Shown one piece after another: positions 4,601 through 26,568 of a stretch of 29,340 nucleotides of DNA. This stretch comes from Breznakia blatticola. GTDB lineage: Bacteria; Bacillota_I; Bacilli_A; Erysipelotrichales; Erysipelotrichaceae. The notes under the pieces were generated by a model, which was not told the DNA's origin, did not search any database, and saw nothing but the letters and a program-made list of their open reading frames with translations. How positions within the stretch are numbered: position 1 is the stretch's first letter; every line of letters starts with the position of its first letter. The stretch is taken from the NCBI RefSeq assembly GCF_004365815.1, contig NZ_SODD01000034.1, positions 1-29,340 on the forward strand, given 5' to 3'. The translations under genes were made by a program, and so were the position numbers.

Positions 4601-7600
4601 AAAATCGATGAAGATCAAAATAAAACAACGTATACGTATGATAAACATGATTTACTTGAAATCGCATATCCAGATGGAACGACAGAAAGTTATACGTATA
4701 ATAGCGCACACCAAGTAACAAGTAAAACGGGTCGTGATGGTGGAGTAGAGTATTTTGCATATCAAGGAAATGATCTAGTAAAACATACGTTAGCAGATGG
4801 AACATTTACAACATATACGTATGATGCAAATCATCGTGTAGTAACAGAAACAAGTGCTACAGGTGCATCAAAGACATATACATATAGTGGAAATCAAATT
4901 GCCAGCATTACACATTCAAATGGTCTAGTTGAAAACTTTACGTATGATGCAAGTGGAAACGTGTTGAAAGAAAGTGATAACCAGGGTAAAAATCAAACGT
5001 ATTTGTATAACGATAATAATCAAATGATTAAGAAAACGTATACGGATGGGACTTATGAAGAGTGGGGTTATGATGGTAATGGAAACATTACAAGTTATCG
5101 TGACCGCATTGGTGGAATCACTACAAATACATATGATAAAAACAATAATGTAATTGCTAGTAAAAAAGGAAGTCTAACAAATTCGAAAGTTTATGATAGT
5201 AATAACCAGTGTATCAAAGAAACAGATGCACAAGGAATTACAAAAACATATACCTATGATGCTAAACTTAGATTAATTAAGGAAAGTGATGGCTTAGGTA
5301 ATGAAATAAGTTATACGTATGATGCCTTAGACCATGTAATTAAAACGATTGATGTACGTGGACAAGAAAGTACAGATACATATGATCAAGATTTATTAAT
5401 CAAACATGTTGATGCTGCTGGATTAGAAACGACATATAGCTATGATGATAAAAACCGTGAAATCGAAAAAGCATATACCAATGGAACCAAAGAAAGTAAA
5501 GTATATACAGGTTTACTTTTAACTGAAGAAAGCGACATTCGTGGACAAAAAACAACGTATACGTATGATGCATATAGTCGTATCAAAACAAAGACTGTGA
5601 GTATTGGTGAGATTGAACATGTAACAACATATACCTACGATAGTAATAACAATATTACAAAAGAAGATGTAGATGGTGTGGTCACAACGTATGCGTATGA
5701 TGTGTACAATCGTAAGATCAAAGAAACAGATCCATTAGGATTCACGACTTCGTATACATATAACTTTGATGATGAAATCATTTCTACAACGGATGCATTA
5801 GGAAATACATCAACACAAACGTATGATGGTGAAGGAAATCTAATTAAAGAAACCGATAAAAATGGAAATACAGTAGAACATGTTTATAATGCACAAGGAT
5901 TTCTTGTTGCTGAAAAGGATGCTCTAGGAAATACAACAACGTATGCATACAACGAAAAAGGACAATGCATTACAGTTGTTGATCCATATGGATTTACAAC
6001 ATCATTTACATATAGCAAATACAATCAATTGCTTGATACATATCAAGAAGGTACATTAATTGAAAGTATTACATACAACAAATATGGGGATGTAAAAACA
6101 AAGAAAAATACAGAACTGAATGAAAGTTATACGTATGATCATTTTGGTCGACAAGTAACAAAAACAGATCAATATACACAACTACAAACAACAACAAGCT
6201 ATGATGTGTATGGAAATGTAACTAAAGAAGAAGATAGCAATGGAAGAAGTAGTTCTTTCACTTATGATGTATATAACCAAAAATTGACTGAAATCGATGC
6301 ATATGGTCGTACAACAAGCTATACATATGACCAACTTGGACAAGTTATTTCTACAACAAATGCACAAGGAACAACAAGTCAAGTGTACGACAAAAATGGA
6401 AATGTGATTGAAAGTATTTCACCGCTTGGTGTAAGTACAACATACGCATACAACAAACGTAATGAGAAAATCAAAGAAGTCATTGGTGATAAAGAATTAG
6501 CATATAGTTATGATGGACTGGGTCAATTAACGAAGACGACAGATGTAAAACGCAAGAGTGAAACGACGACAAGTTATGATGCAAATGGAAATGTGACTAA
6601 AGAAGTGGATGCATTAGGTAATGCAATCACTTACACATACGATGCAAAAAACCAAAAAGTATCAACAACTGATGCATTAGGAAATACCAGCAAAACGGAA
6701 TATGATGCTAACGGAAATGTAACTAAGGAAATCGATGCACTAGGAAATACAAAACAAAGTTCATATAATGCATACCAACAGCTAGAAAAAGAAGTAGATG
6801 CACGTGGGTTTGAAACGCTATATAGTTATGATGATGCACTACGTTTAGTTAAGGTAGAAGATGCTATTGGTGGATCTATTACATACATATATAATGATGC
6901 AAATAAAGTCAGCAAAGAAACAAATAGTGAAGGTTTTAGTAAGACATTTGTATACGATGACTATGGTCAAATCATTGAAGAAAGTGACTATAATGGTGTC
7001 ATTACAAAACGAAGTTATGATGTACTAGGAAATGTTGTAAAAGAAACAACAGCAAATAAAACAACAACTTCTGTTTATGATGAAAAAGGAAATCATGTAA
7101 AAACAAGTGTAAATGATGTCGTGCAAGAACAATTTACCTACAATGATTACAATCAAGTTGCAACGAAAAAAGATGGAAATTCAAATGTTACAACTTACAC
7201 ATATGATACATATGGAAATGTTAGTACTGAAGATGCTGCAGGTTATAAAACAGCATATACATACAATGTATATGGAGAACTTCTTGAGAAAGTAGAAAAC
7301 GATACATACAAAGAAAGTTACGTATATGATGCAAAAAACCAACTTACTGAAACAAAGGTAAATGGTAAAACTGCACAAACAAAAACATACGATGCAAATG
7401 GGAATATAATCCAAGAAGCAGAGTATGGAAAAGTGATCGAAACACAATATGATGCATGCAATCGTCCATCTGCATATCTTGTAGAATATGAAGGAAGTAT
7501 GCAAGTAATTCAAAGTGTTACATATGATGAAAGTGGTAATGCAATTACAATTACAGATGCTAATGGTAATACAGAACAAAGAACATTTGATGCAAATGGA

Positions 7601-10273
7601 AATGAAACTAGCTTTATAAACAAGCGAGGTATCAAACAACTATTTGCTTATGATACACTTGGTCAACTAGAAAAAGCTGAAAATGCACAAGGACGTGTTG
7701 TTAGATATACGTATGATGGAAATGGAAATGCACTTACAAAAACTGTAGGAACAAAAATGGCAGTATATACATATGATGATTTCAATCAATGTACCTATGA
7801 GAAAAATGAATATGGATATGTAGAGAAAACAAAATATGATGTATTTGGTAATAAAGTTGAAGAAACAAAACCAGATGGCACAATTATTACATATGCTTAT
7901 GACAACAATAACAACCAGATTCAAAAGAATAGTCAAACCTTCAGTTATGATAAACGAAACAACCTAATTAAAGCAGAAGGTGCAAATGGCACAATCACAT
8001 ATACATATGATGCATTTGACCAAATGCTAACTTCAACAAATGCAAACAAAGAAACTGTAAGTTATGCTTACAATAAAGATAAGCAATTATCTAAAATGAC
8101 TTACGCAAATAAAGACGTCGTTACTTATAGTTATAAAGATGGTATGTTGTCTACTGTGAAAAAGAACGATGCAACAATTGCAACGTATTCATATAACAAT
8201 AGAGGTGAGCTTGTTGATCTTGTGCAAGGAAATATGCAATCAACATTTGCTTATGACAAATTAGGAAATGTAATAAAGCAAGATATCTACAAGGATAAGA
8301 AACTCGAACAAAGCCGTACGTATGCATATGATGCAAATGATAATGTCGTTAAAGAAGTTATTGATGGCAAAGAAAATAACTATGTGTATAATGATGCAGA
8401 TGAGCTAAGTGAAAGTAGTAAATATGTAGATGGAAAATTAGTTAAGACATCTTACACATACGATATGTATGGAAACAAACGTGTTTCAAGTAATGATGAA
8501 GGTGTTAAAACGTATACATATAATGATAAAAACCAATTAGAAAGTGTTGAAAGTACAAAAGGTGTAAGTCGTTACTACTACAACGATAATGGAAACCTTA
8601 CAAGTAAAGTGAATTCTGATGGTAGTAAAGAAGTGTATACATATGATGAATTTGACCATTTAGTTGAACATCAAAAAGGTGATTATATCTATACCTTTGC
8701 ATATGATGCACAAGGAGATAAAATCAGTGAAAGTAAACAAGATGTACGAACATATCAAAAACAAGTATGGTATGATTATGAAGGAGTCATCGATGTTACT
8801 GCTTCAAGTGATACAAAAGTTAAAAATACATTTGATGGACTACGCCAACAAGTAAAAACAAAAGAAGCAAATGGTGGTGTCTGTACATACCAAGGAACAA
8901 GTTCATATACTGCAAGCTACAAAAAAGATGTAGAAGTGACAGATTTCGTTCTTGATAAGAATGTAGAGTATACACAAATTCTAGAAACAAATGGAAATGG
9001 TAATGTGTATGGATTATCCATCTTGGAAGAAGATGGAACTACATTAGTAGCAAGTTTAAATGACAGTATTGCATTACAAGTAAAAAACAACAAAGTTACG
9101 AAACTAACGTACAGTGATTATGGTAAAACAAGTAATATAGCACAAAGTCATGCATACAATGGAGAGTACCAACAAGAAACAGGACTCATCTATTTACGTG
9201 CTAGATACTATGATCCAACTATCGGAAACTTTATCCAAATCGATCGCAACTACAAAGGTGAAAACACAGATGTAGCAACTCAAAACCGTTACAACTATGC
9301 ATTAAGTAATCCTTACAAGTATGTGGATAGAGATGGGAATAAAGCAAAGAAAAAGAAGAAACAAAGTGTAGTAAGTGCTGTTGTTGGTAGCGTGAAAAAT
9401 GTAGTGTCTAGTATTAAAACGAATATTGTTCAGTCGACAACGATGGTGATGCGGAGCGAAACCATGTATAATTTGATGGATTTAGTAGTACAAATTTCAC
9501 CATATTTTACTTCAGAAATGGCGAAGGTAACTACATTATTAGCAGTAACTCCGGCAACTACAATAGGTTTAGTGATGTATGGTGCTGTAGCAACTCCGGC
9601 AAGTTTGATTTGTGGTATAGAAAAAGCAATAAGATTTACTGAAATGACGCCTACGCAGCAACAAGCATATGTGAATGCTTGGGAGCATCAATTGGGTGGT
9701 AGACTGTATGCTGGTCCTTACGTAGCGGATAAAATGATGAATTTATACTACGAAAGTATGGGATATACAACAAGAATACCAGAAAAAGCACAAGTAAAAG
9801 AGGATAAAGCAATAAGCTACGTTTCTGAAAATAGTTCGACAGGATCAATGGTTGCGGCAGCACAAGAACAGCAACAACCAAAACAACCGAAAAAAGATGA
9901 TGACGATGATAAGAAGAAAGATAAAAATAAAAATTCAGATAAGGGTTCGAATAGTAATATAAAAGGGAATGATGTTACATATAATCAAAGATCTGTAGAT
10001 AAAGCTTTTGGTAAACATGGAAGTGATTTTGGTAATTACCCTGATGGAAGTAAAGGTAGTATTCAACAGTATCAAAATGATATATCAAAATTCATTGATA
10101 GTCCTAATAATATTCAAAAACCAGGAACCTGGTGGGGTTCTCAAGGAACACATATATATAATCCAACTACAAATCAATGGGTATTTATTAATGCTGATGG
10201 TACGTTTAATACAGGATTCAAGCTCTCAGCAGATCAGATGAAGTATTTAATAGAGACAGGAGTGGTAAAATAA
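1601..10273 (+). CDS. Secreted LysM-domain RHS/YD-repeat polymorphic toxin with a C-terminal colicin-D-like nuclease domain (2,890 aa)
   Basis: The more probable start is ATG 1622 (SD-like AAAGGGAAAG at 1605-1614), giving a Sec-type signal MRKKLLPVFLVCLMLLQV..RVLA|AQ. LysM-like segment at 3500-3625. Plug-like motif GDPITTTNGNFYYETEDF from ~3737, followed by dozens of YD repeats. RHS core end is YLRARYYDPTIGNFIQIDRNY..NRYNYALSNPYKYVDRDGN (9194-9340). A 310-aa variable tail follows. Confidence 0.95.
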   Translation: MKRERIDMRKKLLPVFLVCLMLLQVSDTGLRVLAAQSNRITPGASYGSMYQKDIQREIVNVYDANDDAQEEAVVTKEASNYDLSDPYESYEEVEDKREINSKTYEIQKGVFVKETYFEPIHKEENGKLVDIDDRLENVNRSRSNKAIYKSKDGLLDVQIDGNSVRVTNEETSDLQWSLPDADVSHYSVKENVILFTNVYKNIDMEYVIRSNKVFTTFYINGPVEKSTLDFIFTSQHLTSKETDDGVVFYRSDNPDQDVYVFAKPTIRSATEAIGNSQITYENAQDGVHVSLSLDQTWINDSAQVYPIALSTRAANLEVLNITSCYVRSETPNFSSSQYSDLFVGYDNEFWAGIGVRTGVNRSYFYIDKPNLGNNMRVEKANLELFKEQDGIEQGVSHLMGKNIEAYECANANLNTLTWNTQPTIEKKLSTNNVEGVKNKYYKFDITGYVSSRYKGIEKTLLLKAEDESINAFANVFNSESTASRPRITIEYREDYDVDPNLSIENFDQELRVVSKLNDGFKALSLDGLIKPYATAVFKLHEKQDGNSTVINELLSMSVGGAYFSHPIVFTNPYGSGHTVQPSYNGNKEGQNYTTNYVKAESIPKFDTLYEYVMKVKKDGVESAKSITTDGFIKYKVKNGDTLRSIASYYGVSIDQIKLDNNQSSNSVYAGQVLFIRFKKDNTKVPKDVYTPPLRTITYEAKYVYRGPQCYGTCPIGDPITTTNGNFYYETEDFTLKDYDAFTFHRYYNSTGEQVSNMFGNGFTSNLEQYVTYDENKNILFFRGDGKILQIDKTANGYTPKTTDRIEIEVKQDEVQIFDIETGRTYVFDSYGTLVTIIEKTGHKTTISYDAYGAIQSIRVGEKEISFTYNENNLVQSIQLPNGKSVSYTYDAKRNLTSYTNVLGHKETYNYDDKNFMRSIIDKNGNTIATNTYDDEGKVKSQKDGKGQEMKFSYTNKKTDITLADNTKVTYEHEDFKTTKVAYGDGSSSSYRYDTYGNIIEKIDEDQNKTTYTYDKHDLLEIAYPDGTTESYTYNSAHQVTSKTGRDGGVEYFAYQGNDLVKHTLADGTFTTYTYDANHRVVTETSATGASKTYTYSGNQIASITHSNGLVENFTYDASGNVLKESDNQGKNQTYLYNDNNQMIKKTYTDGTYEEWGYDGNGNITSYRDRIGGITTNTYDKNNNVIASKKGSLTNSKVYDSNNQCIKETDAQGITKTYTYDAKLRLIKESDGLGNEISYTYDALDHVIKTIDVRGQESTDTYDQDLLIKHVDAAGLETTYSYDDKNREIEKAYTNGTKESKVYTGLLLTEESDIRGQKTTYTYDAYSRIKTKTVSIGEIEHVTTYTYDSNNNITKEDVDGVVTTYAYDVYNRKIKETDPLGFTTSYTYNFDDEIISTTDALGNTSTQTYDGEGNLIKETDKNGNTVEHVYNAQGFLVAEKDALGNTTTYAYNEKGQCITVVDPYGFTTSFTYSKYNQLLDTYQEGTLIESITYNKYGDVKTKKNTELNESYTYDHFGRQVTKTDQYTQLQTTTSYDVYGNVTKEEDSNGRSSSFTYDVYNQKLTEIDAYGRTTSYTYDQLGQVISTTNAQGTTSQVYDKNGNVIESISPLGVSTTYAYNKRNEKIKEVIGDKELAYSYDGLGQLTKTTDVKRKSETTTSYDANGNVTKEVDALGNAITYTYDAKNQKVSTTDALGNTSKTEYDANGNVTKEIDALGNTKQSSYNAYQQLEKEVDARGFETLYSYDDALRLVKVEDAIGGSITYIYNDANKVSKETNSEGFSKTFVYDDYGQIIEESDYNGVITKRSYDVLGNVVKETTANKTTTSVYDEKGNHVKTSVNDVVQEQFTYNDYNQVATKKDGNSNVTTYTYDTYGNVSTEDAAGYKTAYTYNVYGELLEKVENDTYKESYVYDAKNQLTETKVNGKTAQTKTYDANGNIIQEAEYGKVIETQYDACNRPSAYLVEYEGSMQVIQSVTYDESGNAITITDANGNTEQRTFDANGNETSFINKRGIKQLFAYDTLGQLEKAENAQGRVVRYTYDGNGNALTKTVGTKMAVYTYDDFNQCTYEKNEYGYVEKTKYDVFGNKVEETKPDGTIITYAYDNNNNQIQKNSQTFSYDKRNNLIKAEGANGTITYTYDAFDQMLTSTNANKETVSYAYNKDKQLSKMTYANKDVVTYSYKDGMLSTVKKNDATIATYSYNNRGELVDLVQGNMQSTFAYDKLGNVIKQDIYKDKKLEQSRTYAYDANDNVVKEVIDGKENNYVYNDADELSESSKYVDGKLVKTSYTYDMYGNKRVSSNDEGVKTYTYNDKNQLESVESTKGVSRYYYNDNGNLTSKVNSDGSKEVYTYDEFDHLVEHQKGDYIYTFAYDAQGDKISESKQDVRTYQKQVWYDYEGVIDVTASSDTKVKNTFDGLRQQVKTKEANGGVCTYQGTSSYTASYKKDVEVTDFVLDKNVEYTQILETNGNGNVYGLSILEEDGTTLVASLNDSIALQVKNNKVTKLTYSDYGKTSNIAQSHAYNGEYQQETGLIYLRARYYDPTIGNFIQIDRNYKGENTDVATQNRYNYALSNPYKYVDRDGNKAKKKKKQSVVSAVVGSVKNVVSSIKTNIVQSTTMVMRSETMYNLMDLVVQISPYFTSEMAKVTTLLAVTPATTIGLVMYGAVATPASLICGIEKAIRFTEMTPTQQQAYVNAWEHQLGGRLYAGPYVADKMMNLYYESMGYTTRIPEKAQVKEDKAISYVSENSSTGSMVAAAQEQQQPKQPKKDDDDDKKKDKNKNSDKGSNSNIKGNDVTYNQRSVDKAFGKHGSDFGNYPDGSKGSIQQYQNDISKFIDSPNNIQKPGTWWGSQGTHIYNPTTNQWVFINADGTFNTGFKLSADQMKYLIETGVVK
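2560..3080 (+). other. N-terminal surface/carbohydrate-binding-like domain of the RHS protein (DNRLRE/CBM96-like, tentative)
   Basis: The segment YVRSETPNF..SDLFVGYDN....RSYFYIDKPNLG...VEKANLELF...LNTLTWNTQP...PRITIEY resembles my memory of DNRLRE-domain surface proteins. A DDRLEN motif lies at 1994-2011. Not verified by HMM. Confidence 0.35.
3500..3625 (+). other. LysM peptidoglycan-binding domain within the RHS protein
   Basis: YKVKNGDTLRSIASYYGVSIDQIKLDNNQSSNSVYAGQVLFI fits the LysM consensus (Y.V..GDTL..IA..YgvsvdqL...N.l.....l..GQ.L.I). Confidence 0.8.
3737..9340 (+). repeat. RHS shell: tandem degenerate YD repeats plus the RHS-associated core
   Basis: The unit ..(Y/F)xYDxxGNxxxxxDxxGxxxx(Y/F).. 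recurs throughout, e.g. YTYDAKRNLTSYTN, YRYDTYGNIIEKID, YTYDANHRVVTETS, TSYDANGNVTKEVDALGN. The region is terminated by the YYDPTIGNF...VDRDGN core. Confidence 0.9.
9341..9976 (+). other. Pre-toxin part of the RHS C-terminal tail: Lys-rich start, hydrophobic/helical module, low-complexity linker
   Basis: KAKKKKKQ sits directly after the predicted cleavage motif. The stretch SVVSAVVGSVKNVV...VTTLLAVTPATTIGLVMYGAVATPASLICGI (about 9527-9620) is long enough for membrane-interacting helices. The linker AAAQEQQQPKQPKKDDDDDKKKDKNKNSDKGSNSN spans about 9854-9958. Confidence 0.6.
9977..10270 (+). other. Colicin-D-like (BECR-fold tRNase type) toxin domain
   Basis: TYNQRSVDKAFGKHGSDFGNYPDGSKGSIQQYQNDISKFIDSPNNIQKPGTWWGSQGTHIYNPTTNQWVFINADGTFNTGFKLSADQMKYLIETGVVK. 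The spacing of KH..DFG, GT(W/Y).G, (Y/F).NP.T and G.F.(S/T)G(F/W)KLS..Q is what I remember for colicin D / Colicin_D-family CT domains. Needs an HMM or structure check. Confidence 0.6.
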
Positions 10274-12310: not shown

Positions 12311-12871
12311 CTAGAAAAATAAGTGCTCGATGAGTATTTTACTTCCAATAAGAATGAGAATTACTCCACCAGCAACTTCAGCATACGTATGAAGTAAAGA
12401 ACCCACAAATCGACCGATGTATCCACTAAGAAAAGATAGTGCAAATGTCACAAGTCCAATAATGATACATGCAAACAGTATATCTACTTCAAAGAAGGCG
12501 AAACTGACACCAACAGCAAGTGCGTCAATACTCGTAGCTATACCTAGTAATAAAATATCTTTTACTTTTATTTCCAGTTCACAAGATAAGTCTTGTTCAC
12601 CAAAGGCTTCATAGATCATTTTGATACCGATAAACACAAGAAGGATAAATGCAATCCAGTGATCTAAAAAGGTAATAGAGCCTGTGAAGTTTACGCCAAC
12701 AGTGTATCCAATAAGTGGCATTATTCCTTGGAAAAAGCCAAAACTAATCGCATAGACTAGTGAAAATTTAATTGCGTTTTTCTTTGTGTAACACATTCCT
12801 TTTGCTAGTGAAACTGCACATGCATCCATTGCAAGTCCAATACTGGTTAATAAAATTGTTAGTATGCTCAT
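12311..12871 (-). CDS. mntP: Manganese efflux pump MntP
   Basis: MSILTILLTSIGLAMDACAVSLAKGM, a second DALAVG motif, and 6 predicted TM helices. SD AAGGAG (12881-12886 on the complement). Confidence 0.9.
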   Translation of the reverse strand: MSILTILLTSIGLAMDACAVSLAKGMCYTKKNAIKFSLVYAISFGFFQGIMPLIGYTVGVNFTGSITFLDHWIAFILLVFIGIKMIYEAFGEQDLSCELEIKVKDILLLGIATSIDALAVGVSFAFFEVDILFACIIIGLVTFALSFLSGYIGRFVGSLLHTYAEVAGGVILILIGSKILIEHLFF

Positions 12872-15258: not shown

Positions 15259-16104
15259 CTATTTATCGAACTTTTTACGACGATTGGTACTTTGAATAAA
15301 CAGGTGTTTCATCGTTTCTTCATCATCGTTTTTCAATGCTTGTTTAAAGGTATCTAGGGAAGCTTCAAATGCTTCGATTTCCTCTAATAGAATATCCTTA
15401 TTGAATAAGAAGAGTTCGCTCCACATATCTTCATTGATTTTGGCGATTCTTGTTAGATCACGAAAGGAATCTCCAGTGTAATCAACCAACTTATCATGAT
15501 CGTGCGTATTCATTAAACTTACAGCAATTACATGGGTAAGTTGACTTAGAAATCCAATCATTCGATCATGCTCATCAATACTTAATAGTGAGATGTGATG
15601 AAACTTTAAGATATCAGCAACATCCATCATAGCATTGATCGCTTTTTCGCTATTGTCTACAGTTGGAACAATAATGAAGTTTGCTTGTCTGAATATCGAA
15701 GGATCTGCATGTTCAATTCCACTGACTTCTTTTCCAGCCATCGGGTGTGTTGAAATAAATTCGGCATCCACATCTTTTAAGATATATTGAATTGGCTTTA
15801 CAACATTACGCTTTACCCCTGCGATATCTGATACAATTGCACCTGGTTTAAAGTCATGCTTATGTTCTTGTATCCACTGAATCATCACTTTGGGATATAA
15901 ACATAGAATGACAATGTCAGCTTTATGTATATCGCTTGGTTGGATACTTCCTTCAGTGATGAAATTGTTCGCTAGCGCATAATCAATTGTTTCTTGACGT
16001 CTAGCAATCCCAATCACATGATATCCAGCATCATGTAGACCTTTGGCATAACTACCACCAAGTAAACCTAAACCAACAATTGCATATACAGGTTTATTTG
16101 ACAT
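15259..16104 (-). CDS. tyrA: Prephenate dehydrogenase
   Basis: NAD-binding IVGLGLLGGSYAKGL plus the HPMAG motif. ATG 16104 (MSNKPVYAIVG) is preferred, with GAGGTG upstream. It overlaps the aroA 3' end by 11 nt. The longer ORF-track start at 16125 is a GTG. Confidence 0.9.
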   Translation of the reverse strand: MSNKPVYAIVGLGLLGGSYAKGLHDAGYHVIGIARRQETIDYALANNFITEGSIQPSDIHKADIVILCLYPKVMIQWIQEHKHDFKPGAIVSDIAGVKRNVVKPIQYILKDVDAEFISTHPMAGKEVSGIEHADPSIFRQANFIIVPTVDNSEKAINAMMDVADILKFHHISLLSIDEHDRMIGFLSQLTHVIAVSLMNTHDHDKLVDYTGDSFRDLTRIAKINEDMWSELFLFNKDILLEEIEAFEASLDTFKQALKNDDEETMKHLFIQSTNRRKKFDK

Positions 16105-17365
16105 AGTGCACCTCAATGCCAACACTTGCTAGATCTTCAAAGAAGGTTGGATATGACTTATTGATGTACTCTGCTTCATCAATAATCACTTTATCTTTCA
16201 TGCAGGTTGCTGCAATCGCTAATGCCATAACAATGCGGTGATCTTTATGTCCACTTAATTGTCGTGTTGCTTCATATGGTGGATTTCCGTGAATCGTAAT
16301 CGTATCTGGTGTACTTGAATAATTAACACTGCATGCTTGAAGTTCATTTTCCATTGCAAGAATACGATCACTTTCTTTTAATCGTAAACGACCTGCATTG
16401 ATAATGGTGCTTTCTTTTTGTGTATACATTTGTAGTACATTTAATATAGGTCCTAAATCCGGACAGTTTTCTAAATTGATCGTTGCTGGAGATAGTTGTG
16501 ATTTTTTTATTTCATAGCCAAAAGGTATGGGAGTAACATCCACATGGAAATCTCTTAAGATATCAATGATTTGCTTATCTCCTTGCTTACTATCATGGGA
16601 TAATCCAGTGATTGTTAAGTCATTGTTGATGGCAGCTAAGACTGCAAAGAAACCTGCTTGTGAGTAATCACCTTCGATTGTGTAATCTGCAGCTTGGTAT
16701 GTTTGATTTCCTTTAATGTATAGCGTATATGGATCTTGATAGACAACATCAATTCCATAATGTGCAAGCATTTGAAGGGTTAAATCAACATAACTGCGAC
16801 TTTCATAAGGTGCTTGGATATGGATGGTTGAATCTTGTTTTAGTAAAGGTAAAGCAAATAGTAAGCCAGAGATGAATTGACTAGATACATCACCAGCTAA
16901 GCTATATGCACCTGGTTGTAAACTACCTTGAATACGAATACATGATGCATCTTGTGTGTAATGTAATTGTTTCTCATGAAATAGGTCTTCATATACTTTT
17001 TGTGGGCGCTTAAGTAAGCGGTTTTCACCAGTAAATGAAACATTTTTATTCGTTAGTGAGAAAATTGGAATGAAGAAGCGTAAAGTACTTCCACTTTCCT
17101 TACAAAACACATCTTGGTTATCTGCAAATGAGGCAAAGTCAATTCCACCATCAATGATAACTTGATCATCCTTTGTTTCTATATGTGCACCAAGTTGTTG
17201 CATCCCTGCAATCGTCACAAGAATATCATCAGAAAATGCAACATTCGAAATGATGCTTCTTCCTTTAGCTAAACTTGCACAAATAATTGCACGGTGTGAC
17301 ATACTTTTTGAAGGTGGGAGATGTACACTTCCAGAACATTTGGAAGGTGTAATTTCTACTTTCAT
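16094..17365 (-). CDS. aroA: 3-phosphoshikimate 1-carboxyvinyltransferase (EPSP synthase)
   Basis: LPPSKSMSHRAIICASLA, RPQKVYEDL.., DHRIVMALAIAA. 423 aa. Its ATG overlaps the aroF stop codon (TAATG). Confidence 0.95.
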   Translation of the reverse strand: MKVEITPSKCSGSVHLPPSKSMSHRAIICASLAKGRSIISNVAFSDDILVTIAGMQQLGAHIETKDDQVIIDGGIDFASFADNQDVFCKESGSTLRFFIPIFSLTNKNVSFTGENRLLKRPQKVYEDLFHEKQLHYTQDASCIRIQGSLQPGAYSLAGDVSSQFISGLLFALPLLKQDSTIHIQAPYESRSYVDLTLQMLAHYGIDVVYQDPYTLYIKGNQTYQAADYTIEGDYSQAGFFAVLAAINNDLTITGLSHDSKQGDKQIIDILRDFHVDVTPIPFGYEIKKSQLSPATINLENCPDLGPILNVLQMYTQKESTIINAGRLRLKESDRILAMENELQACSVNYSSTPDTITIHGNPPYEATRQLSGHKDHRIVMALAIAATCMKDKVIIDEAEYINKSYPTFFEDLASVGIEVHYVK

Positions 17366-18384
17366 TAGATATCTCTCCCGATAACTTGCGCAATTTCTCT
17401 CGCTTTTTCAATTAATGCTTTAAAACGTTTTGGTTTTAAACATTGATCTCCATCAGAGAATGCATTTTCTGGATCATTATGTACTTCAATAATTAGTCCA
17501 TCTGCTCCAGCAGCAACCGCTGCTAGTGAAGCACTTTCTACAAGTGACCAATCTCCAGTTGCGTGTGAAGGATCGATCACGATTGGTAAGTGTGTTTTAC
17601 GTTTAATAATTGGAATCACACTTAAATCTAACGTATTTCTTGTCTCTGTTTCAAATGTACGAATTCCACGTTCGCAGAAGATAACGTTTGGGTTTCCATT
17701 TGCCATAATGTATTCTGCACTCATAATCCATTCATCAATCGTGTTGGCAAATCCACGTTTTAATAAGATTGGTTTTGTGGTACGTTTTCCTAATTCTTTT
17801 AGCAATTCAAAGTTTTGCATATTTCTTGCCCCAATTTGAATTACATCTACGTATCTTTCGAATTCATCAATTTTGTCAGCACTCATAAGCTCACTAACAA
17901 TTGGCAATCCAGTTTCTTCTCGTGCTTTTACCATGGCAAGAATTCCATCGGTTTGCATCCCTTGGAATGCGTATGGTGATGTACGTGGTTTGTATGCTCC
18001 ACCACGAAGCATTTTTCCACCTGCATCTTTTACGTCTTTGGCAAGTTGGACAACCATTTCTTCACTTTCAACGGAACATGGTCCACCAATTACCACAATT
18101 TTTTCTTGTCCACCAATCTTGATTCCATTGATATCAAAGATGGTATCTGTTGGGTGCATTTGACGTGAAGCAAGTTTGTATTTTGCGGCAATACGCGTAA
18201 CGTGTTCAACGCTTTCGTTTGCCATAATGCGTTTTTCATCGATTGCGGTTGTATCCCCAGTTAATCCATAAATCGTAAGGTCGCTACCTTGAATTTCAAC
18301 AGCAGTAACACCGAGTGTTTCTAACTTATCGATTAATTTCTTGACCGCTTGTTGGTCAGCATTTTTCTTTATCGTAATAATCAT
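17365..18384 (-). CDS. aroF: 3-deoxy-7-phosphoheptulonate (DAHP) synthase, type I-beta, with an N-terminal ferredoxin-like regulatory domain
   Basis: Catalytic core GPCSVESEE...LRGGAYKPRTSPYAFQG...KRG....EW...AEYI...GN..V.CERGIRTFE...RNTLD. It is preceded by a ~75-aa extra domain (MIITIKKNADQQAVKKLIDKLETLGVTAVEIQGSDLTIYGLTGD) like the Thermotoga-type FL domain. Confidence 0.92.
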   Translation of the reverse strand: MIITIKKNADQQAVKKLIDKLETLGVTAVEIQGSDLTIYGLTGDTTAIDEKRIMANESVEHVTRIAAKYKLASRQMHPTDTIFDINGIKIGGQEKIVVIGGPCSVESEEMVVQLAKDVKDAGGKMLRGGAYKPRTSPYAFQGMQTDGILAMVKAREETGLPIVSELMSADKIDEFERYVDVIQIGARNMQNFELLKELGKRTTKPILLKRGFANTIDEWIMSAEYIMANGNPNVIFCERGIRTFETETRNTLDLSVIPIIKRKTHLPIVIDPSHATGDWSLVESASLAAVAAGADGLIIEVHNDPENAFSDGDQCLKPKRFKALIEKAREIAQVIGRDI

Positions 18385-18397
18385 TTGTTTTGTCCCC

Positions 18398-19669
18398 CTA
18401 CATATTTATGATTGTGATTTGGTTGGTATATGTTGCGATTGCTTGATCCACCGCAACCACGAGTGTATCGTGGTTGGTAATGGTTACATCACTATAGCTT
18501 TCGTATAATGGTGCACGCGTATCATATAGTTGTTGAATTGCTTCTTTACTAGAACTTAGTGGTCTTGATGGATCACTAAGTAATTGGTCGATATCTCGAT
18601 CAATATAAATAAGGAAGCCATTGTGTTGTAAATTCTTAATATTCTCATAGTTCTTAACAATTCCTCCACCACATGAAATAACTACGTGATGTGAATTAGC
18701 AAGTTCTTTTGTGACTTGTGTTTCTATTTCGCGAAAAGCAGCTTCACCATGTAATTCAAAATACTTGGCAATTGGCATTTGGATGCGTTCAACAATTTGT
18801 GCATCAATATCGATAACCTCACGCTTTAGCTTTGTACATACTTCATTTGCGATGGTAGTTTTGCCACTACTAGGCATACCGATAAACACTAAGTTACTTT
18901 GTTCAAGTAAGAGTTCTTGGTAAATGCTCTCAATATGTACATCATCAATGGTGATGTCTTTAAAATACTCAACTGCATATTTTGCTTGTGCAACTAACAT
19001 TTCAAGTCCATTTACACAAGGAATGTTATACTTTTTCGCTTCTAATAGAAAACTGGTACGCAGTGGATTGTATATTACATCCACACATGCTTCAAGTTTA
19101 TCAAATCCATCAAGGTCAATTGGCGATGCATCAACTTGTGGTGACATTCCTACTGGTGTTGTTTGAATGATAATTTCACAGTCTCTATGCTTTTTATAGA
19201 TTTCATCGAGTGTCATAGTTTCTTTACTAGCGATGATATCAACAATCAACACTTGTTTTGCATTTGCTTGATGTACAACTTCTTGAATTGCTTTACTGGC
19301 TCCACCGTTTCCCATGATTAGCACTTTTTTTCCTTGTAAGGAAATGTTGTGTTTTCGTAAGGTATATGCAAAACCTAAGTAATCCGTATTATAGCCGATC
19401 AATTTTCCATCTCGATTCACGATAGTGTTTACAGCACCGATACGTTTGGCACTTTCATCGATTTCATCAAGATAAGGAATTACGGTTTGCTTATATGGTA
19501 TTGTCACATTAATCGCTTTAAAATCTTTTGCTTTCATAAATGCATCGATATCCTCTTTTGCGATTTCTTTTAGTTGGTATGTATAGTCACTTACGAGTTG
19601 TTCGTGAATGACTTTGGAAAAACTATGACCGAGTTTTTCACCAATTAATCCGTATTCCATATTATTCAC
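18398..19669 (-). CDS. aroE: Bifunctional shikimate dehydrogenase / shikimate kinase (AroE-AroK fusion)
   Basis: The N-terminal ~255 aa carry AroE motifs (GLIGEKLGHSFS, NVTIPYKQ, GAVNTIV, GYNTDYLGF, GNGGASKA). The C-terminal ~165 aa carry AroK motifs (NLVFIGMPSSGKTT, DID, FRE.E, ISCGGG). Confidence 0.9.
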   Translation of the reverse strand: MNNMEYGLIGEKLGHSFSKVIHEQLVSDYTYQLKEIAKEDIDAFMKAKDFKAINVTIPYKQTVIPYLDEIDESAKRIGAVNTIVNRDGKLIGYNTDYLGFAYTLRKHNISLQGKKVLIMGNGGASKAIQEVVHQANAKQVLIVDIIASKETMTLDEIYKKHRDCEIIIQTTPVGMSPQVDASPIDLDGFDKLEACVDVIYNPLRTSFLLEAKKYNIPCVNGLEMLVAQAKYAVEYFKDITIDDVHIESIYQELLLEQSNLVFIGMPSSGKTTIANEVCTKLKREVIDIDAQIVERIQMPIAKYFELHGEAAFREIETQVTKELANSHHVVISCGGGIVKNYENIKNLQHNGFLIYIDRDIDQLLSDPSRPLSSSKEAIQQLYDTRAPLYESYSDVTITNHDTLVVAVDQAIATYTNQITIINM

Positions 19670-20759
19670 CTACCCATGCTGGACCAAATTGTTGGATGCA
19701 TAGATCCAATATCCCAATAGCAACAACACTATCCACGACAACACGTGCACGGTGTACAATGGCAGGATCATGACGTCCTTCAATTTGGATGGTTGTATTT
19801 TCTTTTGTTTGATAGTCAATGGTTTCTTGTTCAATAAAGATGGAAGGAGTCGGTTTCACGACCGTTTTTAGATGTAATGGCATTCCATTAGAAATTCCAC
19901 CATTGATTCCACCATTATAATTCGTTTTGGTTTTCACCGTTTCTTGATCCATATAGAAGGCATCATTTACTTCGCTTCCATTGAAGTTGCAAAATTCAAA
20001 ACCCAGACCAAATTCAACTCCCTTAATTGCAGGAATAGAAAATAGTAATTTTGCTAGGACGCTTTCTAGGCTTGAGAAGAACGGTTCACCAACACCCGTA
20101 GGCATACCTAGCACCATTGTTTCTAAAATTCCACCTGTAGAGTCACCGGTTTTAGCTAGTGTTTCAATGCGTTCTTGCATTTGCTTGCTAACTTCTACAT
20201 CACATACAGGAAAATAGGTTTGATTGAGTTCTTGCAATACAGATACGGCAACATCTTCACTTTCTGGGAAGGGGATATCTTGTAGTTCTTGTAGTTTTGC
20301 AATATGAGTTCCAATAACGATTCCTTTTTTTTCTAGGATGTGACGTGCAATACTTCCTGCTGCCACAAGTGGAGCAGTAAGCCTACCAGAGAAGTGACCA
20401 CCACCACGATAATCTTGATAGCCACGATATTTTTCGTTGGCTGTATAGTCTGCATGCGATGGACGCATTTTATCGTTATGATAGTCCTTAGAGTGCGTAT
20501 TGCTGTTTTCAAATAAAATGCAAAGTGGTGTACCTGTGGTATGTCCATTAAAATACCCACTTACAACATGAAGTTCATCACGTTCTTTACGACTTGTTGA
20601 TATTTTTCCTTTTGGTTTTCGTAAATCTAAGAAGTGATTGATATAGTTTTCATCAAGCGGGATACCTGCAGGTAAACCGTTGATCAAAACTCCAATGGCT
20701 TCTCCATGAGATTCACCAAATAGGGATATTTGTAATGCTTCACCAATACTACTTTTCAT
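19662..20759 (-). CDS. aroC: Chorismate synthase
   Basis: FGESHGEAIG, RPSHADYTA..KYG..DYRGGGHFSGR, RHDP. Overlaps aroB by 11 nt and aroE::K by 8 nt. Confidence 0.95.
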   Translation of the reverse strand: MKSSIGEALQISLFGESHGEAIGVLINGLPAGIPLDENYINHFLDLRKPKGKISTSRKERDELHVVSGYFNGHTTGTPLCILFENSNTHSKDYHNDKMRPSHADYTANEKYRGYQDYRGGGHFSGRLTAPLVAAGSIARHILEKKGIVIGTHIAKLQELQDIPFPESEDVAVSVLQELNQTYFPVCDVEVSKQMQERIETLAKTGDSTGGILETMVLGMPTGVGEPFFSSLESVLAKLLFSIPAIKGVEFGLGFEFCNFNGSEVNDAFYMDQETVKTKTNYNGGINGGISNGMPLHLKTVVKPTPSIFIEQETIDYQTKENTTIQIEGRHDPAIVHRARVVVDSVVAIGILDLCIQQFGPAWVGE

Positions 20760-21768
20760 GATGACTCCTTTCTATCAGTTGTTGTATTTCACTGAGTTCT
20801 AATGCTTGTATATACGAGTGACCAGGTACATCTACCCGGATTACATCGATATGCGTTTGTTTTGCTTTTTTATCTTTTGCGATGATTTGCATCACTTCTT
20901 GGATATCATAATCAACATCTACAGGAATATGCATGTTTTGTAAGATGGTTTTTACTTGTTGTTGCAAAGTAGGATCATCAAGGAAATACAACATACCTAA
21001 AGCCACGCATTCACCGTGATAATATGTTTTTAAATCGTAGTATGCTTCAATTCCATGACCAATAGTATGACCAAAGTTTAAGGTCTTGCGTAAACCACTT
21101 TCTTTTTCATCTTGTTCAACAACTGCTTTTTTTACAAGTAAGGCTTTATAAACGATTGTTTCCAGTTGATCCATATAATTATCTTGTTTAAAGATTTCAT
21201 ATAAGGAAGCATCGTGAATCAATCCTGCTTTTAAAGCTTCAACTAATCCACTTTGAATGTGTCGTTTAGGTAAACTATCCAAAGTGGTAAAATCAATAAA
21301 TACTGCATCTGGGTGATAAAAGGCACCGATAATGTTTTTTACATGATCTAAATTGATTGCTACTTTACCACCGATACTACTATCGATTTGTGAGAGTGTG
21401 GTTGTTGGAATGGACATAAAGGAAATTCCACGCATATAACTACTTGCGACAAATCCACCAAGATCACCAATAACACCACCACCTAAGGCAATCAATACAT
21501 CACTGCGTTGCATACCATAAGCTAGACAAGCTTCACACACTTCTTTATACGTTGCAAAACTCTTACTTCCTTCGCCTGGTACTACCTTATATATTGTACT
21601 TTGTTTGCAGTAGGATTGCACTTTACTTACAAGGTATTCAGGAATGTTTGTATCCGTTAAAATGAAGTATTTTTTTGTGTCACTGACAAAATCTTGAAGT
21701 TTATCAATGGTATTTTCTCCTAAGAAGATAGGATATGATTTGTGATCAAGATTGATTTGAATTTCCAT
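20749..21768 (-). CDS. aroB: 3-dehydroquinate synthase
   Basis: GGGVIGDLGGFVAS.YMRGI.F..IPTTLLSQIDSSIGGK, and HTIGHGIE. ATG 21768 (MEIQINL) is preferred, with SD GGAGAG (21780-21775). The 22 upstream codons of the ORF-track model run through the terminator. Confidence 0.92.
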   Translation of the reverse strand: MEIQINLDHKSYPIFLGENTIDKLQDFVSDTKKYFILTDTNIPEYLVSKVQSYCKQSTIYKVVPGEGSKSFATYKEVCEACLAYGMQRSDVLIALGGGVIGDLGGFVASSYMRGISFMSIPTTTLSQIDSSIGGKVAINLDHVKNIIGAFYHPDAVFIDFTTLDSLPKRHIQSGLVEALKAGLIHDASLYEIFKQDNYMDQLETIVYKALLVKKAVVEQDEKESGLRKTLNFGHTIGHGIEAYYDLKTYYHGECVALGMLYFLDDPTLQQQVKTILQNMHIPVDVDYDIQEVMQIIAKDKKAKQTHIDVIRVDVPGHSYIQALELSEIQQLIERSHHEK

Positions 21769-21786
21769 AAAAAACTCTCCTTTAAT

Positions 21787-21828
21787 AAAAAAAGCACCAA
21801 CATCAATTGCTGTGCCTAGTTGTGTGCC
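21787..21828 (-). terminator. Leader terminator (attenuator) immediately upstream of the aroB SD
   Basis: RNA is GGCACACAACUAGGCACAGCAAUUGAUGUUGGUGC + U7 (21793-21787). The 3' arm GUUGGUGC can pair either with GCAC(A)CAAC (21827-21819) or, as UGUUGGUGC, with GGCACAGCA (21816-21808; 8 bp, one bulge, 5-nt loop). Confidence 0.6.
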
Positions 21829-21872
21829 AAACATGAATAAATAACCAATACATTGTATTAGTTTGTTTGGCT

Positions 21873-21911
21873 CTATCTAAAGTAAAAATAAAAAGTTGAT
21901 GTTAGTTTCAT
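21873..21911 (-). promoter_or_regulatory. Candidate leader-peptide ORF MKLTSTFYFYFR* of the aro operon
   Basis: ATG AAA CTA ACA TCA ACT TTT TAT TTT TAC TTT AGA TAG on the minus strand. The ATG lies 6 nt after the -10 TACAAT, giving leaderless geometry with no SD. It has five consecutive Phe/Tyr codons. Confidence 0.4.
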
Positions 21912-21917
21912 GCGTAC

Positions 21918-21946
21918 ATTGTAATACGATATATTTCGTTTTGCAA
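21918..21946 (-). promoter_or_regulatory. aro operon promoter
   Basis: Minus strand: TTGCAA (21946-21941), 17-nt spacer, TACAAT (21923-21918). Confidence 0.6.
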
Positions 21947-21947
21947 G

Positions 21948-21993
21948 CACTTTATGAAAATTTTACAATTTATGAAACAATTTTCATAAAAAT
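21948..21993. promoter_or_regulatory. Candidate operator cluster in the divergent aro/pheA control region
   Basis: Perfect inverted repeat TTTATGAAA-caat-TTTCATAAA (21969-21990), plus a third direct half-site TTTATGAAA (21951-21959). AATTTTCATAAAAAT (21979-21993) matches the CodY box AATTTTCWGAAAATT at 13 of 15 positions. Confidence 0.45.
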
Positions 21994-24399: not shown

Positions 24400-25251
24400 T
24401 TGGGCATTGTTGCATTTGTGATGCTGGTGTTGATGGTCGTGGTAGTGAGTTACCTTGGCTATGAACAAGGGTGGCATACACTAATTTCACTTTGGTTAGC
24501 ACGTCATGCATCACTTGTTTACGCATTATGTGTAACCTGTGTTGTCATGTTTGGTTTAGCAACCATTGTCGCAAGAAAAAAAGAGAAAGAAAAATCATCA
24601 GCATTGAAGTTTTATGGAACTTTACTGGTGGTTTTCATGTTGCTTGTTGCGATATCCTTTAATTATTTCCGTAATCAAAATTCCTTATATGGAGAAAATA
24701 CGAAATATGATGACAATGAAACGATTAAAATTGCAGATGATTTACCACCAATTACAATCGTTGGTGACTTGAGTGATGAAGAAAAGAGTTACTTCATCGA
24801 TGAATGTATCAAACCACAACCATATGAATTATTAAAAGAAACCACACGAATTTTCTTATGCAGTCGCGAACAATTTGAAGAAATTCGTAAAGAGAACGAT
24901 ATTGCACAAGCAGTCGCGTTTGCTGTGCCAACCAATCGTCATATCTATATTGATGCAAGTCGAGTTGGTATGTATCGTGTCGTTACTCATGAATTATCAC
25001 ATAACTATGATGTCTCACATGACTTCATCAGTGAAACTAAAAAGTTTAAAAAAGAATTTGAAGAGTTCACAAAAGATGAACAGTTTAATGGATTATTTAA
25101 TTTATTAGATGTGCAATATGCACGAAGTAGTGCAGCTGAGTTCTTTGCAGAAGTTAGTGATACATACTTCAATCAAGGGCAAGAGTTAGAAAGACGCTTC
25201 CCTGAATTGTATACATATTTTGATGCGATCTATAGTGGAGAAAATCTATGA
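24400..25251 (+). CDS. Membrane-anchored putative zinc metallopeptidase (HExxH), family uncertain (ATLF-like?)
   Basis: Three N-terminal TM helices. Soluble domain carries THELSHNYD (HExxH) and a downstream [12 protein letters not shown] (possible third-ligand Glu). The TTG start has no SD; see the A9 finding. Its stop overlaps the dtd ATG (ATGA). Confidence 0.55.
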
Positions 25252-25700
25252 GGGTATTAATTCAAAGAGTGAAACATGCAAGTGTCACAATTGATGGAGC
25301 AGTATATAGTGAAATTAAACAAGGATATGTATTACTTGTTGGAATCACAACGGATGATACAAAAGAAATAAGTGAAAAACTAGCAAAAAAGATTGCGCAA
25401 CTACGCATCTTTGAAGATGAAGATGGCAAGATGAATTTAGATATTCAACAAGTAGGGGGAAGTATATTAAGTATCTCGCAATTCACACTTTATGCAGATA
25501 CAAAAAAGGGAAATCGCCCAGGTTTCTCAAGAGCGGCAAGACCCGAACAAGCAAATCCATTATATAAAATGTTCAATGAACAGTTGCGTAGTCATGGACT
25601 GTATGTAAAAACAGGAGTCTTTGGTGCAGATATGAAAGTAGAATTATGCAATGATGGTCCTGTAACCATCATGCTAGATAGTGAGGAAATGTATGGATAA
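25248..25700 (+). CDS. dtd: D-aminoacyl-tRNA deacylase
   Basis: [40 protein letters not shown]. 150 aa. Confidence 0.95.
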
Positions 25701-26568
25701 AATTATTTATGGTAGTGAAATTGCCGCAAAGTGTAAAGAAGATTTAAAAGTAGAAATCGAAGGATATAAAGCCAAAGGAATGCGGTTACCGCAACTTGTA
25801 GTAATTCTTGTTGGTGATGATGTAGGAAGTCAGTCCTATGTTAAAGGTAAAGAAAAAGCCTGTGAAGCCATTGGAATGCAAAATGCAACCATCCGTTATG
25901 ATGCAAGTATTAGCGAAGAAAAATTGATTGAAAAGATTCAAGAATTAAATTATGATGACAATGTAGATGGGATTTTGGTACAACTGCCATTACCATCACA
26001 TATCGATACCAATCGTGTCTTATTCAGTATTAACCCAGACAAAGATGTAGATGGATTTCATCCATATAACATCGGAAAAATGATTATTGGGGAAGATACT
26101 TTTCTACCTTGTACCCCAAAAGGGATTATCAAGATATTAGAATCGATTGGCTATGATGATTTATCAGGAAAAAATGCAGTTGTTATTGGGCGTAGTAATA
26201 TTGTTGGAAAACCAATTGCACAATTATTACTTAATAAGAATGCAACTGTGCAAATGACACACTCACGCACAAAAAACATTGAAGATATTGTAAAACATGC
26301 CGATATCGTAGTTGCTGCTGTTGGAAGAGCCAAACTTGTGAAAAAGGAATGGATCAAAGAAGATGCAGTCGTAATTGATGTAGGTGTAAATCGTGGTGAA
26401 GATGGAAAACTTTGTGGTGATGTTGATTTTGATGATGTTATTGATAAAGTAAAATACATTACGCCAGTGCCAAAAGGTGTTGGGCCAATGACGATTGCGA
26501 TGTTATTAGAAAATACGGTGGAATCGTATCGAAAAAGAGAGGATCTAGAAGATGGAGTACAATCTTAA
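25693..26568 (+). CDS. folD: Bifunctional methylenetetrahydrofolate dehydrogenase / methenyltetrahydrofolate cyclohydrolase
   Basis: [68 protein letters not shown] 25693 is preferred (GAGGAA 4-5 nt upstream) and overlaps dtd by 8 nt. Confidence 0.93.

Follow-up and report, generated by a model that had tools for sequence, protein, structure and literature searches.

By analogy, the described systems closest in function to the element considered here are the aroR leader of Corynebacterium glutamicum and the candidate motif uORFC-13-1. The element lies on the minus strand of contig NZ_SODD01000034.1 of Breznakia blatticola (RefSeq assembly GCF_004365815.1), whose positions 1 to 29,340 form the 29,340-nt stretch of DNA that was analysed, referred to throughout as the window. 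It comprises a 12-codon open reading frame (ORF) rich in Phe and Tyr codons, a two-part hairpin and a terminator, all ahead of the operon aroB-aroC-aroE/K-aroF-aroA-tyrA. We consider it very probable that this element is a Phe/Tyr ribosome-sensing attenuator. As a full explanation we favour, with rather better than even confidence, leader-peptide transcription attenuation of the aro operon by the race mechanism set out below.

Corynebacterium attenuator peptides are translated from leaderless transcripts, as the window's leader peptide is predicted to be. In aroR, as summarised in PMC11802643, a Phe-Tyr-Phe leader lies upstream of aroF and ribosome stalling raises transcription (Neshat et al. 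2014). Taken from that description, the likeness consists of a short leader with alternating Phe and Tyr ahead of a shikimate-pathway operon. According to the same summary, aroR differs in being actinobacterial and of high G+C content, in having three regulatory codons where the family described here has five or six, in responding to Phe and not to Tyr, and in its conventional terminator/antiterminator alternatives (PMC11802643). Mycobacterial leaderless polycysteine upstream ORFs (uORFs), as outlined in bioRxiv 10.1101/834739, resemble the present element in being short and leaderless and in using tandem codons for a single amino acid to adjust the expression of downstream biosynthetic genes, but they are actinobacterial, sense Cys and, in that outline, are not built around an intrinsic terminator.

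The motif uORFC-13-1 was reported upstream of aroF from Acholeplasma and environmental sequences (Brewer et al. 2021, PMC8632094). As that paper describes it in prose, the motif corresponds part by part to the Erysipelotrichaceae leader: -35 and -10 elements and a start codon, then U residues that encode Phe, one more base-paired substructure and an intrinsic terminator ahead of a shikimate-pathway gene. Acholeplasma is placed near Erysipelotrichales, and three members of the present family (L048, L073 and L111) also lie upstream of aroF. Judged by description, the two may well be the same family. There are differences, in that the window copy precedes aroB and has no ribosome-binding site, our aroF-linked members are Faecalitalea-like and not Acholeplasma, and the alternation of Phe and Tyr and the Tyr codons themselves are not noted in PMC8632094.

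Two further comparisons help to place the element. The enterobacterial pheL-pheA and pheST leaders (RF01859) likewise have a short ORF that is rich in Phe codons towards its end and precedes an intrinsic terminator and aromatic amino acid genes, and operate by ribosome stalling; they differ in reading Phe only, in being led by a Shine-Dalgarno (SD) sequence, in holding their codons inside the first stem and in forming overlapping 1:2/2:3/3:4 structures. His-leader attenuators have been predicted in Erysipelotrichales, Peptostreptococcaceae and the Bacillus cereus group (Ashniev et al. 2022, PMC9413887). The first of these groups is the bacterial order to which the window belongs. The His leaders resemble the element in the window in having a short leader peptide with three to five tandem codons immediately upstream of the first hairpin and then a terminator, but they sense His, control the his operon and were drawn with antiterminators by their authors (PMC9413887). 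The first-pass annotation of this DNA, made from the sequence alone, had considered leader-peptide attenuation unusual in this group of bacteria. That was partly right but overstated, given the His leaders predicted in Erysipelotrichales (PMC9413887) and the Phe uORF in Acholeplasma (PMC8632094).

The leader ORF and its family

Comparison with relatives indicates that the mini-ORF is evidently a conserved, translated Phe/Tyr leader ahead of a terminator and the aro operon. The minus-strand promoter (TTGCAA-17-TACAAT) and the 12-codon, Phe/Tyr-rich ORF from which the first-pass annotation had argued for an attenuator are both present where it placed them. The window's AroB is 100% identical to that of B. 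blatticola. DNA upstream of relatives of AroB was then taken without regard to whether a leader was present, and the same element was found in nine of 13 distinct AroB relatives; these nine span 52-89% AroB identity and include [Clostridium] innocuum. Among the 120 matches listed by a pattern scan of metagenomes, three were true matches, adding two further distinct sequences (three loci) upstream of aroF in Faecalitalea-like genomes; a scan of viral contigs gave chance matches only. The resulting set consists of 12 distinct leaders, the window plus 11 from Erysipelotrichaceae, in about eight related lineages, and the metagenome scan makes this a lower bound, so that the family has at least 12 members. 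Two members recur in the comparisons below: L001, from a relative whose AroB is 89% identical, and L024, from C. innocuum. The L048 and L073 leaders lie directly upstream of aroF, and the frame downstream of L111 starts with the same residues and is cut short after 34 codons.

All 12 leaders follow a single plan. Five to seven variable N-terminal codons are followed by a run composed only of Phe and Tyr codons (FYFYF, YFYYF or YFYFYF), then by exactly one sense codon (R, K, E or I) and a stop codon (UAG in 11, UAA in one). After the stop come a two-part hairpin, a spacer and a terminator with U6-U8. Leaders differ in length by whole codons only, and the changes within the run are either synonymous (UAU/UAC) or exchanges between Phe and Tyr, with none to any other amino acid.

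The low cost of TTT and TAT codons in AT-rich DNA had been raised as a caveat, and for the bare run it is justified: the window contains three runs of five Phe/Tyr codons where 1.1 are expected, which is not significant. The full signature (ATG, 3-8 codons, five Phe/Tyr codons, one codon, stop) is a different matter, being expected 0.003 times per window and observed once. Conservation is the stronger argument for the leader than chance expectation. A candidate second leader, the FYFYF run TTTTACTTTTATTTC at 12560-12574 on the plus strand, was dismissed as a chance occurrence; it lies antisense inside mntP (manganese efflux) and has no start, stop or hairpins, and it serves as a control for how readily such runs arise.

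These observations bear on the proposal that the ORF arose by chance in a U-rich spacer, and that what is conserved is either an untranslated RNA, with a terminator and a hairpin that binds a protein or ligand, or a signal at the DNA level. TTT and TAT are indeed cheap at 34% G+C, two other runs of five Phe/Tyr codons occur in the window by chance, the Phe/Tyr run itself contains TTNTTT motifs, and the inner stem of the hairpin (P2) with its 3' flank is conserved in sequence, as would suit a binding site. We nonetheless find this proposal hardly credible, since the frame, the start codon, the position of the stop and the restriction of length changes to whole codons are kept in 12/12 leaders, the run tolerates only synonymous or Phe-Tyr changes, two independent solutions to translation initiation are maintained, and the full signature is so rarely expected.

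The two initiation solutions divide the family in half. Six of the 12 leaders, the window included, have no SD sequence and carry a -10 hexamer exactly 6 nt before the ATG. This spacing implies a transcript start at the A of the AUG, and we infer that the window's transcript is leaderless, starting at or within 1-2 bases of that position; in the leaderless members six codons precede the first Phe of the run. The absence of an SD sequence, an earlier caveat, holds for the window and five relatives. The remaining six leaders have one, with similar promoter elements, a 10-25-nt 5' untranslated region (UTR) and GGAG or AGGTG lying 5-10 nt ahead of the start codon, an ATG in all cases but one. The exception, L145 (leader at 2350-2375), begins with GTG 10 nt after GGAG and is otherwise nearly identical to L021, which is further evidence for selection on the reading frame and not on the sequence. 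Because two different ways of initiating, leaderless spacing or an SD sequence, have been kept, it can be strongly argued that the leader ORF is translated.

The alternative frames carry a further regularity. In the window a UAG in the -1 frame (21879-21877) overlaps the end of the Phe/Tyr run, and a -1-frame stop (UAG, UAA or UGA) directly follows this slippery run in 11/12 leaders, produced by differing next codons (AGA, AAA, GAA). Its recurrence suggests that selection favours termination at nearly the same place by ribosomes that have slipped on the U-run. The +1 frame of the window and L001 is open from the Phe/Tyr run through the two hairpins as far as a UGA, which lies in the loop of the terminator (21892-21803, minus strand). 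The hypothesis that a +1-shifted ribosome covers the terminator was rejected, as this frame closes early in L015, L020, L024 and L048 and is not conserved.

Hairpin, terminator and the search for a switch pairing

A free energy of -34.6 kcal/mol (z = -4.4) is predicted for the fold of the 146-nt leader. Its outer stem, P1, has as its core the pairing of CCAAACA (21870-21864) with UGUUUGG (21833-21827) that had been noted from the sequence, and reaches 8 bp with a flanking G-C pair. The enclosed hairpin had been described as 7 bp; folding gives 9 bp. The predicted terminator, with U7 ending 6 nt before the aroB SD sequence, is likewise present. It was not called by a simple terminator scan of the window, because its stem is bulged, and the hairpin therefore rests on folding and covariation. 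In aroB-led members the U6-U8 terminators end 17-19 nt before the aroB start; they lie farther upstream of aroF in L048 and L111. The hairpin starts between -1 and +2 nt from the stop codon in all 12 leaders, and the spacer between hairpin and terminator measures 6-10 nt.

MAFFT with RNAalifold alone recovered only the inner stem, and model-based realignment was used for this reason: a covariance model was built from the window's fold and all members were realigned to it. P1, P2 and the terminator covary, with 83% of cells paired compared with 26-45% in controls whose partners were slid by 1-3 columns. Fifteen of the 24 pairs are changed on both sides, against 0-6 in the slid controls, and none of 500 shuffles reaches the observed values. 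When an arm from one clade is set against the partner arm from another, the two do not pair. An alignment of related leaders had been suggested as a check in the first-pass annotation, and its outcome was favourable on both counts, the Phe/Tyr run being kept in 12/12 leaders and the stems covarying. The covariance model recovers every member and finds no match in 117 chance pattern matches, 13 aroB loci from Clostridium and other distant non-Erysipelotrichaceae, four leader-less AroB relatives or four viral contigs.

No family in Rfam 15, the T-box included, gives a gathering-level match in the window or in seven relatives. The best sub-threshold matches are to Ref84 (RF02846; 21.7 bits against a threshold of 52, E 1.9) and, on L024, to Phe_leader (RF01859; 18.2 against 55); the RF01859 model has no match at all in the window. 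Identity with Ref84, suggested by its UUUUUAUUUUU stretch, was rejected, Ref84 being an intergenic trans-acting small RNA of enterococci that is unrelated to aro genes.

In trp and his leaders, a pause hairpin gives the ribosome time to load. The sequence directly after P2, GGTTATTT, fits TTNTTT, a NusG-dependent pause motif. TTNTTT is the non-template-strand motif of NusG-dependent pauses in Gram-positive bacteria, and an upstream hairpin strengthens such pauses (PMC12288461). Judged by its sequence and position, GGTTATTT is a candidate hairpin-plus-motif pause site, placed just before the 3' arm of P1 is made.

A competing structure had been proposed in the first-pass annotation: codons 3-6 of the leader (21905-21896) would pair with the terminator 3' arm (21806-21797) as a mutually exclusive alternative. 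In a switch built on this pairing, ribosome occupancy of the ORF would decide whether it can form. The duplex itself is real. It comprises 11 bp at -13.6 kcal/mol, a value that ~0.3% of shuffles reach, it is the dominant feature of the equilibrium fold in both the window and L001, and it is part of the minimum-free-energy fold. As a mutually exclusive switch, it exceeds chance in just two leaders, those of the window and its 89% relative, remains at chance level in the other 10, and gives no self-versus-cross signal. It is also kinetically implausible, as the terminator 3' strand is made last and the local 5' arm should win, so that the pairing cannot pre-empt the terminator. Finally it has the wrong sign, for codons 3-6 would be covered by a stalled ribosome and free once the ribosome had gone, giving termination at equilibrium under early stalling and read-through when Phe and Tyr are plentiful, contrary to what a biosynthetic operon needs. 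We rejected this duplex as an antiterminator and rate the switch built on it as very unlikely.

Other pairings gave no better candidate. The 5' half of the hairpin pairs with the terminator 3' arm no better than shuffles do, and there is no enrichment of pairing between spacer and ORF end that would lengthen the hairpin at its base. Between the 3' half of the hairpin and the spacer plus terminator 5' arm, complementarity is in fact depleted relative to composition-matched shuffles (eight lineages, p 0.003-0.016), a statistic that is approximate because the lineages are related. On these predictions, the terminator appears to be insulated from the hairpin. The earlier caveat that the pairings could not be mapped cleanly onto the 1:2/2:3/3:4 logic was well founded, because no conserved antiterminator was found.

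Ribosome position and the proposed mechanism

What the sequence comparison directly supports is a conserved ORF, its Phe/Tyr run, a fixed spacing between ORF and hairpin, two helices plus a terminator, and the lack of an overlapping antiterminator. The spacing becomes informative when ribosome positions are considered. Counting the first base of the P-site codon as +1, the first pair of P1 lies at +12 to +15 when the last Phe codon is in the A site, and at +6 to +9 when the stop codon is. Downstream duplexes are opened at the ribosome's mRNA entry site, at about +11 to +13. The hairpin would therefore stay intact while a ribosome waits on any one of the five Phe/Tyr codons, and its base would be opened by a ribosome that has reached the stop codon, which in the window means all three G-C pairs of P1. 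The single codon that invariably separates run and stop is the minimum spacing that achieves this opening. Classical attenuators carry their regulatory codons inside the first stem, whereas here 6 nt separate the last base of the Phe/Tyr run from that of the stop codon, and the run lies outside the 5' strand of the hairpin.

We propose that the attenuator reads the supply of charged tRNA-Phe and tRNA-Tyr in the following way. Transcription would start at or within 1-2 bases of the A of the AUG, and a ribosome would translate MKLTSTFYFYFR. RNA polymerase probably waits at the inner hairpin and GGUUAUUU (a TTNTTT-type pause) while the 3' strand of P1 is still unmade, and the ribosome would thereby gain loading time. 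With Phe and Tyr plentiful, the ribosome would reach the UAG, its front covering the three G-C pairs at the base of P1, and the long hairpin would stay open. While it is open the polymerase would run the remaining ~45 nt, and the terminator would release a leader RNA of ~125 nt. Were the ribosome delayed on any of the five Phe/Tyr codons, the hairpin just outside it would fold and read-through into aroB would become more frequent.

This race model follows from the hairpin geometry together with the requirement that a biosynthetic operon must rise when Phe and Tyr are scarce. The depleted pairing between the hairpin 3' half and the terminator also fits a design in which the terminator must work while the hairpin is open. 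Four elements of the model are inferences: where transcription starts, that the polymerase pauses, in which direction the switch works, and how a folded hairpin with a ribosome at its base would lower termination. Our confidence in the explanation as a whole is a compromise between the high confidence placed in the regulatory class and the lower confidence placed in its direction: that the hairpin is melted by the terminating ribosome, and not by the stalled one, we hold to be a tentative conclusion with slightly less than an even chance of being right.

The opposite direction is that of a classical attenuator. Here a stalled ribosome would mask the 5' strand of P1, and the freed UGUUUGG (21833-21827) would pair with CUAGGCA (21819-21813), overlapping the first three bases of the terminator 5' arm and allowing read-through; a fast ribosome would leave, P1 would close and the terminator would form. 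This is the mechanism of every characterised leader-peptide attenuator. Masking of the 5' arm does yield the required 7-bp helix in the minimum-free-energy folds of the window and L001, the three positions at which these two sequences differ in this region fall in the helix loop or turn a U-G pair into U-A, and partial equivalents occur in L019, L048 and L111. The helix is nevertheless weak (-4 kcal/mol), no better than those of composition-matched shuffles, and absent from L015, L017, L020 and L024; over the eight lineages, as described above, the complementarity is depleted and not enriched. Geometry presents a second difficulty, for the regulatory codons lie upstream of the stem, which would be within reach of a stalled ribosome at no more than the final one or two positions, and a ribosome at the stop would mask the stem even more, so that starved and replete cells would not be separated. 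We regard the classical arrangement as unlikely here.

The hairpin at the stop may itself promote read-through, lowering termination with no pairing to the terminator and making the element an antiterminator-free attenuator of inverted geometry, in which the terminating ribosome, not the stalled one, destroys the hairpin. We put this forward as a speculative and on balance doubtful proposal, and two forms of it can be envisaged. The put RNA of phage HK022 acts on RNA polymerase or its factors, and the folded hairpin might act similarly. Alternatively, the hairpin would loop out ~46 nt, so that a ribosome at its base would be held within ~10 nt of the terminator 5' arm and would hinder formation of the terminator hairpin in the polymerase exit channel. 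If true, such an attenuator would be a novel means of converting the position of a ribosome into a choice between termination and read-through.

A further input to the locus may exist beside the leader. A TTTCA[TG]AAA site occurs upstream of the promoter in 12/12 leader loci, 40-95 nt upstream of the Phe/Tyr run, and in several of these the site reads (T/A)ATTTTCAGAAA(A/T)T. We take this sequence to resemble the CodY box AATTTTCWGAAAATT, which it matches at 12-13 of 15 positions. These CodY-box-like sites are probably the operator for a second, protein-based layer of control.

Several of our results count against the favoured explanation. A conserved antiterminator sharing the terminator 5' strand was not found by masked folding, by duplex and hairpin energies compared with shuffles, or by the ensemble probability of the terminator; such an antiterminator is a defining part of every characterised attenuator. 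Predicted terminator formation in the ensemble shows no common dependence on ribosome position across members, leaving the race model without a physical link between hairpin and terminator. One potential link was identified, in the form of a second copy of the terminator 5' arm that abuts the hairpin in three lineages (5/12 leaders, among them the window, L021, L145 and L022). This second arm is the stronger one and the hairpin sequesters its first bases, which would connect the two structures. As a general solution, a second terminator of this kind was rejected, the arm being degraded in L001 and absent from the remaining leaders. Four AroB relatives have no leader altogether, and the operator-like sites upstream of the promoter mean that the leader need not be the main control. 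The evidence for the favoured explanation, finally, is entirely computational.

Some of these points would sit well with the leader not being a terminator switch at all. In such a scheme the terminator would be constitutively leaky, control would be exerted mainly through the upstream operator-like sites, and the mini-ORF would act otherwise: a ribosome stalled near the 5' end could shield the transcript from 5'-to-3' decay, or the ~125-nt RNA or the FYFYF peptide could be functional. Such protection by a stalled ribosome is known for ermC in Bacillus, and in the leaderless members the extreme 5' end would lie beneath a ribosome held at the first Phe codon. For most members, terminator folding is not predicted to vary with the ribosome, and TTTCA[TG]AAA or CodY-box-like sites lie upstream of 12/12 promoters. 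Attenuator-derived RNAs and leader peptides with trans functions have been described in Sinorhizobium (PMC6614838, PMC7298713). Such a scheme would leave unexplained the strict spacing of stop and hairpin, the covarying P1 and P2 and the conserved pause-like motif. Moreover, the 10-25-nt 5' UTR of the SD-type members would not be covered by a stalled ribosome, and the N-terminus of the peptide is not conserved. Taken together, we consider a leaky terminator with a mini-ORF of other function improbable.

In its class, the leader belongs with a known type of regulator, leader-peptide attenuation, with an atypical architecture, and it could be more than this. Regulatory codons outside the hairpin, a hairpin flush with the stop codon and an insulated terminator do not fit the textbook arrangement, and could reveal a different coupling of translation and termination. 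The family is a well-supported RNA regulatory family absent from Rfam, present in Erysipelotrichaceae that include the common gut bacteria [Clostridium] innocuum and Faecalitalea, and it would account for control of the shikimate pathway without T-boxes or TRAP. Its strictly alternating Phe and Tyr codons make it a sensor that reads two amino acids at once. The occurrence of the same leader in leaderless form in one clade and with an SD sequence in another constitutes a natural experiment, and the covariance model can be used to annotate the element.

The aro locus and its surroundings

Features of the element and the operon it precedes are collected in Table 1. The product of the operon is chorismate, and tyrA is included; the DAHP synthase is its fourth gene according to NCBIfam. 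Since only 18 nt separate the U7 tract from the aroB ATG, the aroB operon can be expressed only by read-through of the terminator.

Table 1. Positions of the promoter, leader, hairpins, terminator and operon in the window.
Feature	Position	Strand	Remarks
-35 hexamer TTGCAA	21946-21941	minus	also in promoter scan; TTGCAA/TTGCAT kept at same place in relatives
-10 hexamer TACAAT	21923-21918	minus	17-nt spacer from -35; ATG begins exactly 6 nt later
Leader mini-ORF, 12 codons, MKLTSTFYFYFR*	21911-21873	minus	ATG...TAG; kept in 12/12 family members
Regulatory codon run UUU UAU UUU UAC UUU (F Y F Y F)	21893-21879	minus	then one sense codon AGA, then UAG
Outer stem P1, 8 bp, GCCAAACA with UGUUUGGC	21871-21864 with 21833-21826	minus	folding, covariation; first pair 1 nt after stop
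Inner stem P2, 9 bp, AACUAAUAC with GUAUUGGUU	21863-21855 with 21851-21843	minus	folding, covariation
Conserved GGTTATTT directly after P2	21846-21839	minus	sequence kept in all clades, even C. innocuum
A/C-rich spacer, 10 nt, hairpin to terminator	21825-21816	minus	6-10 nt in relatives
Terminator stem GCACAGCA / UGUU(G)GUGC, one bulged G	21815-21794	minus	folding and covariation (helix 3)
U7 tract	21793-21787	minus	ends 6 nt before GGAGAG
aroB ribosome-binding site GGAGAG	21780-21775	minus	preceded by ATTAAA after U7
aroB start codon ATG	21768-21766	minus	
Operon aroB, aroC, aroE-aroK fusion, DAHP synthase, aroA, tyrA	15259-21768	minus	NCBIfam hits; predicted to be regulated by the leader

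On the opposite strand, divergent from the aro operon, lie pheA (chorismate mutase/prephenate dehydratase) and an aminotransferase gene. The -35 hexamer of the leader promoter, TTGCAA, is self-reverse-complementary and doubles as the -35 of a plus-strand TTGCAA-17-TACAAT site (21941-21969) facing pheA. The two divergent aromatic operons may thus have a single region for polymerase binding in common, or be in competition for it. Copies of TTTATGAAA and TTTCATAAA, including the palindrome ATGAAAATTGTTTCAT, are clustered at 21951-21990 on the plus strand, between the divergent aro and pheA promoters. A promoter scan also proposed an internal promoter, TTTAGA-18-TACAAT, within the inner hairpin, and this was set aside because its -10-like sequence is not kept in relatives.

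Downstream of the terminator, the U7 tract and terminator end can pair with the aroB SD region (GCUUUUUUU with AAGGAGAGU, 21775-21794, minus strand), a pairing that is part of the minimum-free-energy fold. It is possible that it acts as a weak translational brake on read-through transcripts. Juxtapositions of a similar kind between U-tract and SD sequence are found in all aroB-type relatives.

Within the operon, a single ORF of 423 aa (18398-19669, minus strand) matches shikimate dehydrogenase (AroE) over residues 3-256 and shikimate kinase (AroK) over residues 254-415, and the fusion is also present in most of the relatives' operons. Just past pheA and the aminotransferase gene, dtd (D-Tyr-tRNA(Tyr) deacylase) and folD occupy 25248-26568 on the plus strand. 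In L020, L021 and L145, dtd/folD adjoin the leader directly upstream in divergent orientation, and from this conserved arrangement dtd looks like a gene linked with the aromatic cluster. Elsewhere in the window, an ORF of 2890 aa (1601-10273, plus strand) spans almost one third of its length.

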